From assembly GCF_030384885.1 (NCBI RefSeq), contig NZ_CP128613.1: DNA of 64,000 bases; one strand, 5' to 3'. The notes under the pieces were generated by a model that did no database searches, was not told the DNA's origin, and worked only from the letters and a program-made list of their open reading frames with translations. Below are positions 10,928-15,901 of the stretch, one piece after another. Both the position numbers and the translations under genes were made by a program. Numbering within the stretch: the first letter of the stretch is position 1; the number at the start of each line of letters is the position of its first letter. This DNA is from Escherichia coli. GTDB taxonomy: Bacteria; Pseudomonadota; Gammaproteobacteria; Enterobacterales; Enterobacteriaceae.

Positions 10928-11314
10928 ATGAGCAAAACTATCGCGACGGAAAATGCACCGGCAGCTATCGGTCCTTACGTACAGGGCGTTGATCTGGGCA
11001 ATATGATCATCACCTCCGGTCAGATCCCGGTAAATCCGAAAACGGGCGAAGTACCGGCAGACGTCGCTGCACAGGCACGTCAGTCGCTGGATAACGTAAA
11101 AGCGATCGTCGAAGCCGCTGGCCTGAAAGTGGGCGATATCGTTAAAACCACCGTGTTTGTGAAAGATCTGAACGACTTCGCAACCGTAAACGCTACCTAC
11201 GAAGCGTTCTTCACCGAGCACAATGCCACCTTCCCGGCACGTTCTTGCGTTGAAGTTGCCCGTCTGCCGAAAGACGTGAAGATTGAGATCGAAGCGATCG
11301 CTGTTCGTCGCTAA
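10928..11314 (+). CDS. ridA: Enamine/imine deaminase RidA (YjgF)
   Basis: 128 aa MSKTIATENAPAAIGPYVQG...; RBS AAGGAG upstream of ATG 10928. Confidence 0.93.
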   Translation: MSKTIATENAPAAIGPYVQGVDLGNMIITSGQIPVNPKTGEVPADVAAQARQSLDNVKAIVEAAGLKVGDIVKTTVFVKDLNDFATVNATYEAFFTEHNATFPARSCVEVARLPKDVKIEIEAIAVRR

Positions 11315-11380
11315 TCTCTTTCAAAAAGATAATCCAGGTTTCGCGCCTGGATTATCTGATTCAACCACGGAGGGTTGAAG

Positions 11381-11836
11381 ATGGCTAAATCCCGTTTCAC
11401 AGATAAGCAAATTGCTGAAATTTTACAGCGGTCAAAAGAGGGGGCATCTAATAAGGAGCTTTGTGAACACTATCAATTTAGCGTTAACACGCTGCGGCGC
11501 TGGCAAGAACAGCACGCTGACGGCATCAGAAGCGAATTAAAAAAAATAGAATCTAAAGCACAGATCGTCTTTCTGCTTTTCATTGCTATTGTCATTATAC
11601 TCACGCTTATATTTGGTAAACCTACAGGTGGATGGGCAATACCGCCTTTATTACTCTATTGTGTTTATTATATCCGCCTGTATCGCAACATCTCCGCCAG
11701 ACATATAAAAAAAGAAGACATTTTTCTCTCTCGTTCTGTTAATAACAGCTATAGCGCCCTTTATAATTTGAGCTGGACGTTTATTTGTTTTTTTATTTTT
11801 GCAGTAATCTATTTTTTTATTCAGGTGTTTTCGTAA
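11381..11836 (+). CDS. Hypothetical protein: N-terminal transposase-like HTH fused to a two-helix membrane segment
   Basis: ATG 11381 with GGAGGG RBS; N-terminus (FTDKQIAEIL...LCEHYQFSVNTLRRWQ) resembles IS3-family OrfA HTH, C-terminus hydrophobic; AT-rich. Confidence 0.5.
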   Translation: MAKSRFTDKQIAEILQRSKEGASNKELCEHYQFSVNTLRRWQEQHADGIRSELKKIESKAQIVFLLFIAIVIILTLIFGKPTGGWAIPPLLLYCVYYIRLYRNISARHIKKEDIFLSRSVNNSYSALYNLSWTFICFFIFAVIYFFIQVFS

Positions 11837-11880
11837 CAGACTGACCTGAAAGAGTATTTCAGGCCAGCTTCATCACTTGC

Positions 11881-14577
11881 TTACTGCCAGCCGTAACGAC
11901 GGCTATAGAACCCTTTCACCAACTGGGTTAACGTCATATACCCTGCCAGAATCGCAACCAGCCACGGGAAATAGCTTAACGGCAGCGCCTGCAGTTGCAG
12001 ATAACTGGCCAACGGCGAAAACGGCAATGCGATCCCGACTATCATCACAATCACGGTCATGATCATTAACGGCCACGATGCACAGCTCTGAATAAACGGT
12101 ACACGACGGGTACGGATCATATGCACAATCAGCGTTTGCGACAGTAATCCCACCACAAACCAGCCCGACTGGAACAGCGTTTGCGTTTCCGGCGTGTTGG
12201 CATGGAATACCCACCACATCAGGCAAAACGTCAGAATATCGAAGATCGAACTGATCGGTCCGAAGAAGATCATAAAGCGCCCCAAATCCGCCGGATTCCA
12301 ACGCTGAGGCTTTTGAACTTGCTCGTCGTCGACGTTATCAAACGGGATCGCCACCTGTGACACATCGTACAGCAGGTTCTGGATCAGTAAGTGTAAAGGC
12401 AGCATCGGCAGGAAGGGCAAGAAAGCACTCGCCACCAGCACGCTGAACACATTACCGAAGTTAGAACTCGCCGTCATTTTGATGTATTTCAGCATGTTGG
12501 CGAAAGTGCGACGTCCCTCAATAACCCCCTCCTCCAGCACCATCAGGCTTTTTTCCAGCAGGATGATATCAGCCGCTTCACGGGCAATATCTACCGCGCC
12601 GTCCACAGAAATGCCGATATCCGCAGCGCGTAAGGCGGGAGCATCATTAATACCATCGCCCATAAAGCCAACCACATGCCCTTCGCGCTTTAGCAAGGTC
12701 ACGATGCGTTCTTTATGCATCGGCGTCAGGCGAGCAAACAGCGTGGTGCGCTGTGCAAGATTTGCCAGTTCGTCGTCAGATAGCGTTTCAATATCACTAC
12801 CAATGACCACCTCTCCCGCGTCCAGTCCCACTTCATGGCACACTTTCGCCGCCACTAACTCGCTGTCGCCAGTAAGGATTTTCACGGTAATGCCACTCGC
12901 TTTTAATGCCTTCAGTGCCGGAGCTGTTGTCTCTTTCGGCGGATCAAGGAAAGCAATATATCCTTCGAGGATCAGGTCGGATTCATCCGCCCGCTGGTAA
13001 TCCCCTTCACGTGCTGGCAGGTATTTCGTCGCCACCGCAACCACGCGCAGCCCCTGACGATTCAGCGTATCAGTAACCCGCTTAATCTTACGCAGTATGA
13101 TGTCATCAAGCGGCACAATCTCACCATTGTGACGCACCTGCGAACACACATTGAGGATTTCCTGCAATGCGCCTTTGCAAACCAGTTGATGATGTTCGGT
13201 ATTCTCTGCCACTACCACCGACATCCGGCGACGCTCGAAATCAAACGGAATCTCATCAATTTTTTGCCAACGACTGGCCAGCGAGCGCGCTGACTCTTCA
13301 TCCGTACCTTCGAGCACCGCTGTATCAAGCAGGTTTTTAAGTCCGGTCTGATAATGACTGTTCAACCACGCGCTATGCAGCACCCGTTCGCTGGTTTTAC
13401 CGGAGATATCGGTATGATTCTCCAGCACAATTTTATCCTGCGTCAGGGTGCCGGTTTTATCAGTGCACAGAATATCCATAGCGCCAAAGTTCTGAATGGC
13501 ATCCAGATGTTTGACGATCACTTTCTGTTTCGACAGCTTTACGGCACCACGCGCCAGCGTCGAAGTGACAATCATCGGCAACATTTCTGGCGTTAAGCCT
13601 ACCGCGACCGAAAGTGCGAACAGTGCCGCTTCCCACCAGTCACCTTTGGTGTAACCGTTGATCAGCAACACCACCGGAGCCATCACCAGCATAAAGCGAA
13701 TCAGCAGCATACTGACGCGGCTAATCCCTTGCTGAAAGGCATTCGGCTCGCTTTCCTGCTCACTAACACGCCCCGCCAGTTGACCAAACCAGGTGTTGGC
13801 TCCTGTAGCAATCACCATTGCTTGTGCCGTGCCGCTCACCACGGTGGTACCCATAAAACACAGGGTGTCGCACTCCAGCGGATTGCTGTGCTCCGGCTGG
13901 CGAGTGGTAGCAGCTTTTTCCACGGGCAGAGACTCACCGGTTAACGACGCCTGAGCGACAAACAGATCCCGCGCCTGCAAGATACGTAAATCTGCCGGGA
14001 TCATATCCCCCGCCGCCAGTTTTATAATATCGCCGGGCACTAGTTGGTCTATCGGAATTTCCAGCCAGCCATTTTCACCTTTATCGTTAATTACGCGCAG
14101 TACCGTCGCGGTATTACTGACCATCGCTTTCAGGGCATCTGCCGCTTTGGTGGAACGAGCTTCCTGAATAAAGTTCAGCAACGTAGAAATAGCGACCATT
14201 AGCGCGATAACACCTGCGGCAAATAAATCTTCCGTGGCGTAAGAAATAGCACCGAGAATGGTGAGCAAAATATTAAAGGGGTTGCGATAGCAGACCCATA
14301 AATGTACCCACCACGGCGACGGTTGTTGCGCGGGTAATTTATTTTCACCATGTTGTTCGCGGGCAGATTCCACTTCCGCCTGATTTAACCCTTCCGGATG
14401 GGTATTGAACGTTTTCCATAATTCCTGTTCTGGCATCACCGCCATTTTCAGGCAATGCGCACTTAAGGACGGCGGGACCGCCGTATTCACTGTCTGCTGC
14501 GCGCCAGGCAATGGATCGCGATGAACCAGACGGGAAGGTAAATGGCGAATGAGCCGGGTAAAAATTTCTTTAAACAT
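11881..14577 (-). CDS. mgtA: Magnesium-transporting P-type ATPase
   Basis: 898-aa ORF with P-type ATPase motifs (DKTGTLT, TGDxxxxA, GDGINDAPAL). Confidence 0.97.
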   Translation of the reverse strand: MFKEIFTRLIRHLPSRLVHRDPLPGAQQTVNTAVPPSLSAHCLKMAVMPEQELWKTFNTHPEGLNQAEVESAREQHGENKLPAQQPSPWWVHLWVCYRNPFNILLTILGAISYATEDLFAAGVIALMVAISTLLNFIQEARSTKAADALKAMVSNTATVLRVINDKGENGWLEIPIDQLVPGDIIKLAAGDMIPADLRILQARDLFVAQASLTGESLPVEKAATTRQPEHSNPLECDTLCFMGTTVVSGTAQAMVIATGANTWFGQLAGRVSEQESEPNAFQQGISRVSMLLIRFMLVMAPVVLLINGYTKGDWWEAALFALSVAVGLTPEMLPMIVTSTLARGAVKLSKQKVIVKHLDAIQNFGAMDILCTDKTGTLTQDKIVLENHTDISGKTSERVLHSAWLNSHYQTGLKNLLDTAVLEGTDEESARSLASRWQKIDEIPFDFERRRMSVVVAENTEHHQLVCKGALQEILNVCSQVRHNGEIVPLDDIILRKIKRVTDTLNRQGLRVVAVATKYLPAREGDYQRADESDLILEGYIAFLDPPKETTAPALKALKASGITVKILTGDSELVAAKVCHEVGLDAGEVVIGSDIETLSDDELANLAQRTTLFARLTPMHKERIVTLLKREGHVVGFMGDGINDAPALRAADIGISVDGAVDIAREAADIILLEKSLMVLEEGVIEGRRTFANMLKYIKMTASSNFGNVFSVLVASAFLPFLPMLPLHLLIQNLLYDVSQVAIPFDNVDDEQVQKPQRWNPADLGRFMIFFGPISSIFDILTFCLMWWVFHANTPETQTLFQSGWFVVGLLSQTLIVHMIRTRRVPFIQSCASWPLMIMTVIVMIVGIALPFSPLASYLQLQALPLSYFPWLVAILAGYMTLTQLVKGFYSRRYGWQ

Positions 14578-14717
14578 AAGGAGTCCCTCCGCACTGACTG
14601 AAACAGTGCAGAAATGTCTTCAGGCGTGGCGAAGCCTTACCTGAAGGTAATAAAGCTGAGCTGGGACGTTAAAACGTCACGGCCTTACGCATCCGGTAAC
14701 GCCGTGAAAAGACGGGC
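14578..14717 (-). promoter_or_regulatory. mgtA 5-prime leader (Mg2+/proline-responsive attenuator region) between mgtL and mgtA
   Basis: Position between the mgtL stop and the mgtA start; established leader architecture. Confidence 0.7.
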
Positions 14718-14771
14718 TTACCGGAAAAGTTTTAATCTCCGTCGAGGGAGAGGCGTGGGATCAGGTTCCAT
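14718..14771 (-). CDS. mgtL: mgtA leader peptide
   Basis: 17-codon proline-rich [20 protein letters not shown] upstream of mgtA. Confidence 0.82.
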
Positions 14772-14864
14772 ATAACCTCCGATAAGTGAAAAAAGCGCCG
14801 CAAATAATAAGGAGAATCCAATAATATTCGTGGCATTTATGGCGATATAATACCTACTGGCAAC

Positions 14865-14881
14865 TAAACCAACGATAAACC
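14865..14881 (-). promoter_or_regulatory. PhoP box of the mgtLA promoter
   Basis: On the minus strand GGTTTA-tcgtt-GGTTTA (direct hexamer repeat, 5-bp spacer) with a TATTAT -10 element just downstream. Confidence 0.7.
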
Positions 14882-14953
14882 AGACTTTACCCATTGCTGA
14901 ATGCACGGGTAAAGTTAGGCTCAAATAATGAAACGCAATTACGGGACAACAGG

Positions 14954-15901
14954 ATGCAAAATCGGCTGACCATCAAAGACATCGCGCGCTTAAGCGGCGT
15001 GGGGAAATCTACGGTTTCCCGAGTGCTGAATAACGAAAGCGGCGTGAGTCAGCGCACGCGCGAGCGCGTGGAAGCAGTGATGAATCAGCATGGATTTTCC
15101 CCTTCCCGCTCCGCGCGCGCTATGCGTGGGCAAAGCGATAAAGTGGTCGCCATCATTGTTACCCGTCTGGATTCGTTGTCAGAAAATCTCGCCGTCCAAA
15201 CCATGCTGCCAGCGTTCTATGAACAAGGTTACGACCCGATCATGATGGAAAGTCAGTTTTCTCCGCAATTAGTTGCCGAACATTTGGGGGTGCTGAAACG
15301 GCGTAATATCGACGGCGTAGTGCTGTTCGGTTTTACCGGCATAACCGAAGACATGTTAGCCCACTGGCAGTCATCGCTGGTTCTGCTGGCGCGTGACGCA
15401 AAAGGCTTTGCTTCGGTCTGTTATGACGACGAAGGGGCAATCAAGATCCTGATGCAACGGCTGTATGACCAGGGGCATCGTAATATCAGTTATCTCGGCG
15501 TACCGCACAGTGACGTGACGACCGGTAAGCGACGTCACGAAGCCTACCTGGCGTACTGCAAAGCGCATAAACTTCATCCCGTCGCCGCCCTGCCAGGCCT
15601 TGCGATGAAGCAAGGCTATGAGAATGTCGCAAAAGTGATTACCCCTGAAACCACCGCGTTACTGTGCGCAACCGACACGCTGGCACTTGGCGCAAGTAAA
15701 TACTTGCAAGAGCAACGCATCGACACCTTGCAACTGGCGAGCGTCGGTAATACACCGTTAATGAAATTCCTCCATCCGGAGATCGTCACCGTTGACCCAG
15801 GTTACGCCGAAGCCGGACGCCAGGCGGCCAGCCAGTTAATTGCGCAGGTAACCGGGCGCAGCGAACCGCAACAAATCATCATCCCTGCCACCCTATCCTG
15901 A
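14954..15901 (+). CDS. treR: Trehalose operon repressor (LacI family)
   Basis: 315 aa from MQNRLTIKDIARLSGVGKSTVSRVLN... (HTH_LacI) followed by a periplasmic-binding-like domain. Confidence 0.93.
   Translation: MQNRLTIKDIARLSGVGKSTVSRVLNNESGVSQRTRERVEAVMNQHGFSPSRSARAMRGQSDKVVAIIVTRLDSLSENLAVQTMLPAFYEQGYDPIMMESQFSPQLVAEHLGVLKRRNIDGVVLFGFTGITEDMLAHWQSSLVLLARDAKGFASVCYDDEGAIKILMQRLYDQGHRNISYLGVPHSDVTTGKRRHEAYLAYCKAHKLHPVAALPGLAMKQGYENVAKVITPETTALLCATDTLALGASKYLQEQRIDTLQLASVGNTPLMKFLHPEIVTVDPGYAEAGRQAASQLIAQVTGRSEPQQIIIPATLS

Follow-up and report, generated by a model that had tools for sequence, protein, structure and literature searches.

Does a very stable hairpin that stands directly behind a gene and carries no U-run of its own belong to the gene before it, to the gene after it or to neither? 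We address this question for an inverted repeat downstream of ridA in a 64-kb window of Escherichia coli DNA (the whole stretch of 64,000 nucleotides that was analysed), in a region that is 100% identical to strain 2013C-4282 (Table 1). A sequence-only reading of this DNA had noted the hairpin and offered three options for it: an RNA stability or processing element, a protein-binding palindrome or a Rho-assisted terminator. By combining RNA folding, comparison across complete E. coli genomes and Enterobacteriaceae species representatives, and published 3'-end maps of E. coli K-12, we arrive at a reading that we hold to be probable, namely that the ridA mRNA has its 3' end at this hairpin, descended from a family-wide intrinsic terminator whose U-run was lost in Escherichia, and that the hairpin acts as a leaky terminator, as an exonuclease stop or as both. 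It is ordinary biology, another U-tract-poor 3'-end stem-loop, and the 3' end of its K-12 orthologue is already mapped in published data. The hairpin marks the boundary of the ridA transcript, and its value is mainly for annotation.

The stem-loop and its flanks

Table 1. Coordinates of the features discussed, in positions of the window
Feature	Position	Strand	Details
pyrB	9446-10381	+	
pyrI	10394-10855	+	
pyrI/ridA intergenic hairpin	10870-10903	+	second perfect hairpin of the window; 13-bp stem, AAAAGTCTGGCTC-CCTATAAT-GAGCCAGACTTTT
ridA	10928-11314	+	2-iminobutanoate/2-iminopropanoate deaminase; from the ORF list and the RefSeq annotation of strain 2013C-4282
A-rich tract	11316-11326	-	CTCTTTCAAAAA in + strand letters; read on the - strand as a U-tract right after the hairpin (…AUUAUCU-UUUUGAAAGAG)
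ridA-downstream stem-loop	11327-11357	+	AGATAATCCAGG-TTTCGCG-CCTGGATTATCT; perfect 12-bp inverted repeat, 7-nt loop
Spacer from hairpin to Shine-Dalgarno sequence	11358-11368	+	11 nt, GAUUCAACCAC, without U-run
Small second hairpin	11360-11379	+	UUCAACC-ACGGAG-GGUUGAA; encloses the ORF Shine-Dalgarno sequence; in the MFE and centroid structures of 11300-11400
151-aa ORF	11381-11836	+	annotated 'transposase'
mgtA counterpart hairpin	11840-11868	-	12 nt past the mgtA stop (11881-11883) and 3 nt past that of the ORF; without U-run
mgtA	14577-11881	-	convergent
mgtA Mg2+ leader	14671-14786	-	Rfam RF01056, 122 bits; upstream of mgtA

The perfect stem-loop announced by the sequence-only reading is exact in the sequence, and the high stability claimed for it is borne out by folding. 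In its RNA form (AGAUAAUCCAGG-UUUCGCG-CCUGGAUUAUCU) the + strand gains a closing U·G pair, which makes 13 pairs with a 5-nt loop and a folding energy of -18.5 kcal/mol, against a mean of -4.3 for shuffled sequences (z = -6.7, with 0 of 200 shuffles as stable); the - strand folds at -16.7 kcal/mol. When the whole 64-kb window was searched for perfect hairpins with a stem of at least 12 bp and a loop of 3-10 nt, only two were found, the one studied here and the pyrI/ridA intergenic terminator, and 30 dinucleotide shuffles of the window produced no such hairpin. The conserved core of the hairpin is AAUCCAGG/CCUGGAUU (11331-11338 / 11346-11353), and the outer AGAU/AUCU pairs are found only in loci that carry both the downstream ORF and the AATCC-type stem described below (E. 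coli, Escherichia albertii, Citrobacter FP75 and Klebsiella spallanzanii).

The stem has the make-up and position of an intrinsic terminator, being, within the usual ~5-14 bp of stem and 3-8 nt of loop, a GC-containing stem of 12-13 bp with a loop of 5-7 nt that begins 12 nt 3' of the ridA stop codon (TAA, 11312-11314). The 7-8 nt of U-rich sequence that would directly follow the stem of such a terminator are missing on the + strand, where the stem leads into the tail GAUUCAACC with at most 2 U in a row around the stem end; measured from the GC core, this tail reads UUAUCUGAUU, with 6 U in 10 and no run. Judged by its tail, the hairpin would be a weak + strand terminator at best. The - strand hairpin runs into UUUUGAAAG, which joined with the stem end gives UCUUUUUG, and the tail measured from the GC core is UUAUCUUUUUG, with 9 U in 11. 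The earlier statement that a trailing U-tract is lacking thus describes the + strand tail correctly and is incomplete in two respects, having missed the AU-rich base of the stem (UUAUCU) and the U-run of the - strand. A consensus terminator scan called the hairpin on neither strand, and a scan against Rfam 15 found no match at 11300-11400 even at E <= 1. Two further candidates were set aside: Dcm sites, of which the arms contain two (CCWGG), were judged incidental, the K-12 allele having CCGGG/CCCGG, and RNase III processing was put aside on general knowledge, as the substrates of this enzyme are typically longer than a stem of 12-13 bp.

The hairpin had also been placed 24 bp upstream of the ribosome-binding site (RBS) of the 151-aa ORF. 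This distance is the one to the start codon (ATG, 11381), and the Shine-Dalgarno sequence GGAGG (11369-11373) lies only 11 nt away. On sequence grounds the spacer in between is too short for a separate promoter, and a consensus promoter scan found none between ridA and the ORF. Given the 11-nt gap and the absence of a predicted promoter, the ORF mRNA must be transcribed through the hairpin, and since the ORF is moreover under purifying selection (dN/dS = 0.15-0.19), read-through must occur; we infer that the ORF is co-transcribed with ridA. An efficient terminator at this position would silence the ORF, which is consistent with the distribution of T-runs among related loci reported in the next section.

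Other elements of the region were recorded along the way. The pyrI/ridA intergenic hairpin folds at -20.1 kcal/mol, carries a T-run and has the look of the pyrBI terminator. A perfect TATAAT lies in the loop and, together with TTGGTA at 10862, forms the best promoter-like site of the region, so that the ridA promoter appears, from these motifs, to be embedded within the upstream terminator. In an Rfam scan of 9000-15500 only the mgtA leader exceeded its threshold, and the pyrL/pyrBI attenuator region (9350-9422) gave weak, sub-threshold matches to unrelated leader and sRNA families; both the leader and the attenuator region are expected features of this locus.

Homologous hairpins in E. coli and other Enterobacteriaceae

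The spacer between ridA and mgtA is polymorphic within E. coli, the ORF-type spacer being present in 442 of 5426 complete genomes and the rest, K-12 included, having two REP elements instead. The flanking ridA is ~98% identical to that of K-12, and at the same place K-12 has the hairpin AATCCGGGC-TATCAT-GCCCGGATT, followed by AAGTCTGAT. The stem of the window, AATCCAGG…CCTGGATT followed by ATCTGAT, is homologous to it, and the two stems differ by a compensatory change from G-C to A-U. Among the 442 ORF-type genomes three alleles were distinguished, which vary mostly in the loop: the window type (48 genomes, loop TTTCGCG), the L003 type (355 genomes, loop TATTGCG) and the L084 type (39 genomes, loop TATTTCG). 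The only stem change is a single A-to-G, shared by the latter two and hence found in 394 of the 442 genomes, which pairs as U·G on the ridA strand and leaves an A·C mismatch on the other (-19.2 kcal/mol on the + strand against -13.7 on the - strand) and which counts as a single substitution event. Across 81 loci, the 60 nt that follow ridA showed no general preference for folding on the ridA strand (39 vs 41, Wilcoxon p = 0.87), so the argument from strand comes down to this U·G allele.

To place the hairpin in the family, we compared 80 Enterobacteriaceae species representatives anchored on the RidA protein, which yielded 81 distinct downstream sequences. Most of the representatives have a stable stem-loop close behind the ridA stop codon, and a simple-stem search located one in the first 65 nt in 74 of the 81 sequences. 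The AATCC-type stem (core AATCC-N-G-N / AATCC-NGG) is common to both locus types of E. coli, to E. albertii, to five Citrobacter and to K. spallanzanii. In an alignment of 11 distinct sequences every member forms the 8 to 9 core pairs, two of the pairs show GC/AU double changes (in 4 and 2 sequences), and the loops are different in nearly every lineage. The comparison across strains that had been proposed as a check on the hairpin therefore comes out in its favour, the structure being conserved with compensatory changes.

The stems that carry a U-run are those that reveal the likely origin of the hairpin. In three Citrobacter the AATCC-type stem carries a T-run, TTTTT or TTTT at the loci L031, L039 and L067, the sequence behind the stem being ATTTTTGTC or ATTTTCGTC in Citrobacter MGH106, C. 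amalonaticus and Citrobacter Cu233 (U-tract GGATTTTTGTC); there the stem is a canonical terminator and apparently a bidirectional one. The ridA terminators of the Citrobacter amalonaticus group, Enterobacter, Kluyvera and Leclercia share with the window hairpin its position and a comparable stem length and energy. Relative to Citrobacter, whose stem is homologous (AATCCGGGC…GCCCGGATT), the window has the ridA-strand tail AUUAUCUGAUUC, in which no more than 2 U stand in a row, where Citrobacter has AUUUUUGUC. As the same AATCC stem is found with a T-run in Citrobacter and without one in the window, we conclude that the window hairpin descends from a ridA terminator and has lost its U-run. This descent from a canonical intrinsic terminator was overlooked by the sequence-only reading.

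Across the family, a T-run of at least 4, typical of a canonical terminator, follows the ridA hairpin at 27 of the 66 hairpin-bearing loci that lack the ORF, other loci carrying REPs, and at none of the 9 ORF-type loci (Fisher p = 0.022, with kinship ignored); the measure is the longest T-run around the stem end, and the contrast depends on where that end is set. The U-run of this stem is present in Citrobacter and absent in Escherichia and wherever the downstream ORF needs read-through. Dar and Sorek (2018) proposed that terminators may switch class in evolution by altering their U content, an idea that the Citrobacter and Escherichia stems illustrate.

The 3' end of the ridA mRNA

Evidence on function comes from K-12 and is carried over to the window; downstream of its hairpin the K-12 allele differs from the window in having REPs and not the ORF. 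In the Term-seq data of MG1655 (Adams et al., 2021, eLife, PMC7815308), a 'primary' ridA 3' end is listed at 4470491/4470490 (-) in Supplementary file 1, with 188006 reads in LB at OD 0.4, 77058 in LB at OD 2.0 and 27693 in M63. According to these rows the K-12 ridA RNA ends at …AAUCCGGGCUAUCAUGCCCGGAUUAA(G), 2-3 nt past the orthologous stem, where the 3' end was taken as position 51 of the 61-nt row sequences (50 nt upstream and 10 downstream), as checked on the sgrS row, the caption of the supplementary file stating 40 bp upstream instead. A second K-12 3' end lies just past the downstream REP, at 4470376, and the bicyclomycin experiment (Supplementary file 2) places a Rho termination region ~400 nt downstream of the hairpin, at 4470082 (-) and antisense to mgtA (score 3.07, p = 5.5e-5), with an up/downstream coverage of 122/24 without bicyclomycin and 86/52 with it, in low-resolution windows of 800 nt (Adams et al., 2021). 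The dominant steady-state ridA mRNA in K-12 ends at the hairpin, and the bicyclomycin-sensitive region together with the downstream 3' end indicates that transcription in part continues beyond the hairpin until Rho halts it. Of the three options offered earlier, RNA stability or processing and Rho-assisted termination together fit this 3' end and this Rho region, the protein-binding palindrome being the one that fell away (see below), and the 3'-end mapping that had been named as a check shows a transcript boundary in the K-12 orthologue. The TERMITe supplements make no mention of ridA, yjgF or b4243, and literature searches on the ridA-mgtA terminator, the yjgF-pyrI terminator, the ORF protein accessions and ridA RIL-seq returned nothing relevant. 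The window allele presumably behaves like the K-12 allele, and alignment with K-12 predicts the 3' end of its ridA mRNA at ~11355-11360.

Transcripts whose precise 3' ends, produced through trimming by PNPase and RNase II, lie directly behind stable stem-loops devoid of U-tracts form a class of their own (Dar and Sorek, 2018), and the window hairpin is such a stable stem-loop without following U-rich sequence. It has the terminator-like size and energy of these protective stem-loops, comes directly after the stop codon and likewise lacks a U-run and a conserved A-tract; the steady-state 3' end immediately past the stem, the bicyclomycin-sensitive region a few hundred nucleotides downstream and the REPs nearby are known for the K-12 orthologue. 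It differs from the class in that a translated ORF begins 24 nt downstream in the window, so that Rho would be unable to load right after the hairpin and would terminate transcription much further on. From canonical intrinsic terminators, in turn, the K-12 orthologue differs in having its 3' end 2-3 nt past the stem and not 7-9 nt. This position fits both termination followed by nibbling and trimming of longer RNA and does not separate the two, and we infer a split between weak intrinsic termination and exonuclease trimming.

The following sequence of events would account for these features. Polymerase coming from the ridA promoter would transcribe the hairpin, and a fraction may stop there, inefficiently because the tail measured from the GC core is only moderately U-rich. 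The remaining polymerases, a minority, would pass into the 151-aa ORF and beyond, and the longer transcripts would be trimmed 3'-to-5' by exonucleases up to the hairpin; in K-12, the downstream ends would be made by Rho, antisense to mgtA. Either route would lead to a stable ridA mRNA that ends at the base of the stem, and a leaky hairpin between ridA and the ORF would set a ratio of high ridA to low ORF expression. More generally, a hairpin without a U-tract after a gene is to be read first as a 3'-end protective element or weak terminator, not as an exotic regulator.

Intercistronic stem-loops bring about differential expression within operons in the malE-malF (REP), Rhodobacter puf and E. 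coli pap mRNAs. Like these, the window hairpin stands between an abundant upstream and a presumably low-level downstream cistron, and it could both attenuate read-through and shield the upstream segment from 3' exonucleases; co-transcription and differential stability are both presumptive here, and the hairpin occurs in single copy and is no REP, unlike that of malE-malF. A further step would be to regard the hairpin as a tuned leaky attenuator that couples a conserved membrane-anchored HTH protein, syntenic in at least 7 genera and lost from most E. coli, to ridA transcription, with loss and gain of the U-tract tracking loss and gain of the downstream gene. We advance this only tentatively and lean against it. 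If true, it would provide a natural case of a terminator whose mode, intrinsic, leaky or Rho-backed, switches along with gene content.

The better U-tract of the window allele is on the opposite strand, where the hairpin of -16.7 kcal/mol runs into the U-rich sequence given above, and the hairpin might therefore be a minus-strand or bidirectional intrinsic terminator that halts leftward transcription, such as read-through from mgtA antisense to the ORF, before it reaches ridA. The ridA hairpins of relatives that lie directly between convergent genes and have A- and T-tracts on both sides (Klebsiella michiganensis L009, Citrobacter L031) are in keeping with such a function. The tract is allele-specific, however, being absent in K-12-type alleles and in Citrobacter FP75 and partly kept, in shortened form, in the L003-type allele, and the A·C mismatch carried by most ORF-type genomes weakens the fold on this strand down to the value given above. 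Furthermore, mgtA owns a counterpart hairpin (Table 1) that is better on the - strand (-17.2 kcal/mol against -12.7 on the +) owing to its G·U pairs, that in E. albertii (L005) is a perfect 11-bp stem and that is probably the 3'-end hairpin of the mgtA mRNA; ~480 nt of untranslated antisense RNA would precede the ridA-proximal site, so that Rho could act earlier; and the negative terminator scan applies to this strand as well. We judge minus-strand termination unlikely as the main explanation and possible as a secondary role of a hairpin that primarily serves the ridA mRNA.

The downstream gene and its spacer

The 151-aa ORF has an N-terminal HTH_Tnp_1 domain (Pfam PF01527, E = 8e-9) and three hydrophobic segments, and the Pfam search found no catalytic transposase domain in it. 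A word-indexed protein search with the ORF returned close Escherichia relatives only, all named 'transposase', and the ridA-anchored loci yielded nine syntenic orthologues in 7 genera, the position between ridA and mgtA, in single copy, being shared by Escherichia, Citrobacter, K. spallanzanii, Phytobacter, Superficieibacter and Pseudescherichia. The ORF is a real gene and looks like a conserved chromosomal one that has been mis-annotated as a transposase, and by its predicted features its product could be a membrane-anchored regulator. The small hairpin around its Shine-Dalgarno sequence may, according to the predicted fold, limit translation initiation. The same RBS and start codon are bracketed in other genera by a short stem of different sequence, GCCAU…AUGGC as read from the sequences, and such stems in several genera suggest a conserved occlusion of translation initiation. 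The HTH-membrane gene and the polymorphic ridA-mgtA spacer are in our view more interesting than the hairpin itself.

With the start codon only 24 nt away, the hairpin could be a 5'-UTR element of the ORF's own mRNA, either a stabilising hairpin or one half of a switch with the small Shine-Dalgarno hairpin, next to which the stem-base AUCU could pair alternatively with AGAU at 11378-11381. An own mRNA would call for a promoter, and the hexamer GATAAT (11328-11333) resembles a -10 box; it has neither an acceptable -35 nor an extended -10, and the promoter scan was negative there. The hairpin also persists where the ORF is absent, and other genera do not share the alternative pairing, all of which makes this reading quite improbable.

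A perfect 12-bp dyad just upstream of a gene for an HTH protein also invites the thought of a DNA operator for a dimeric regulator, through which the HTH-membrane protein would autoregulate or would control read-through from ridA, and the compensatory changes in the stem preserve the symmetry of the DNA as well as the pairing of the RNA. Against this stands the finding that structure is conserved and sequence is not. The central 6-7 bp are freely variable, and in the common E. coli allele the dyad is interrupted by a substitution that is neutral at the RNA level, where it gives U·G, and only there. The HTH helix is conserved across the 7 genera, yet the upstream hairpin is unrelated in sequence at three loci (L041, L065 and L077); the orthologues in Superficieibacter and Pseudescherichia have nearly the same helix (FSVSTLRRWQ or similar) behind unrelated, GC-rich hairpins. 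Most E. coli, moreover, keep the homologous hairpin without the ORF, and in K-12 the orthologous hairpin demonstrably forms an RNA 3' end. We regard the protein-binding palindrome of the sequence-only reading as very improbable. That the hairpin is a DNA repeat or the end of a mobile element (REP-like, a MITE or an inverted repeat of a 'transposase' insertion), as the annotation of the ORF and the polymorphic spacer with its ORF or REPs might suggest, is scarcely credible and is excluded by copy number, there being exactly one copy in each of the 442 genomes with the ORF-type spacer and no further copy in the 64-kb window, to which may be added that it matches no REP consensus and is unlike the REPs of the K-12 spacer, and that the ORF is syntenic across genera and without a catalytic domain.

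Two further observations concern the spacer. Within E. coli the alleles of the ORF are unusually far apart (dS ~0.25 between the window and L003 types), and the window hairpin is identical to that of E. albertii, the ORF not (dS 0.35), a pattern that suggests either balanced alleles of old standing or recombination in the spacer. In K-12 (L001) the ridA hairpin is found twice, at 926-950 and 1092-1116 of that locus, as a 25-nt direct repeat with 84% identity whose copies are 166 bp apart, with the two REP elements in between. In the second copy, which abuts the mgtA stop, the stem is degenerate and the tail T-rich (GCCCAGTTTATTCTTTATTG); insertion of the REPs into an ancestral bidirectional terminator and replacement of the ORF are both possible sources of this duplication.
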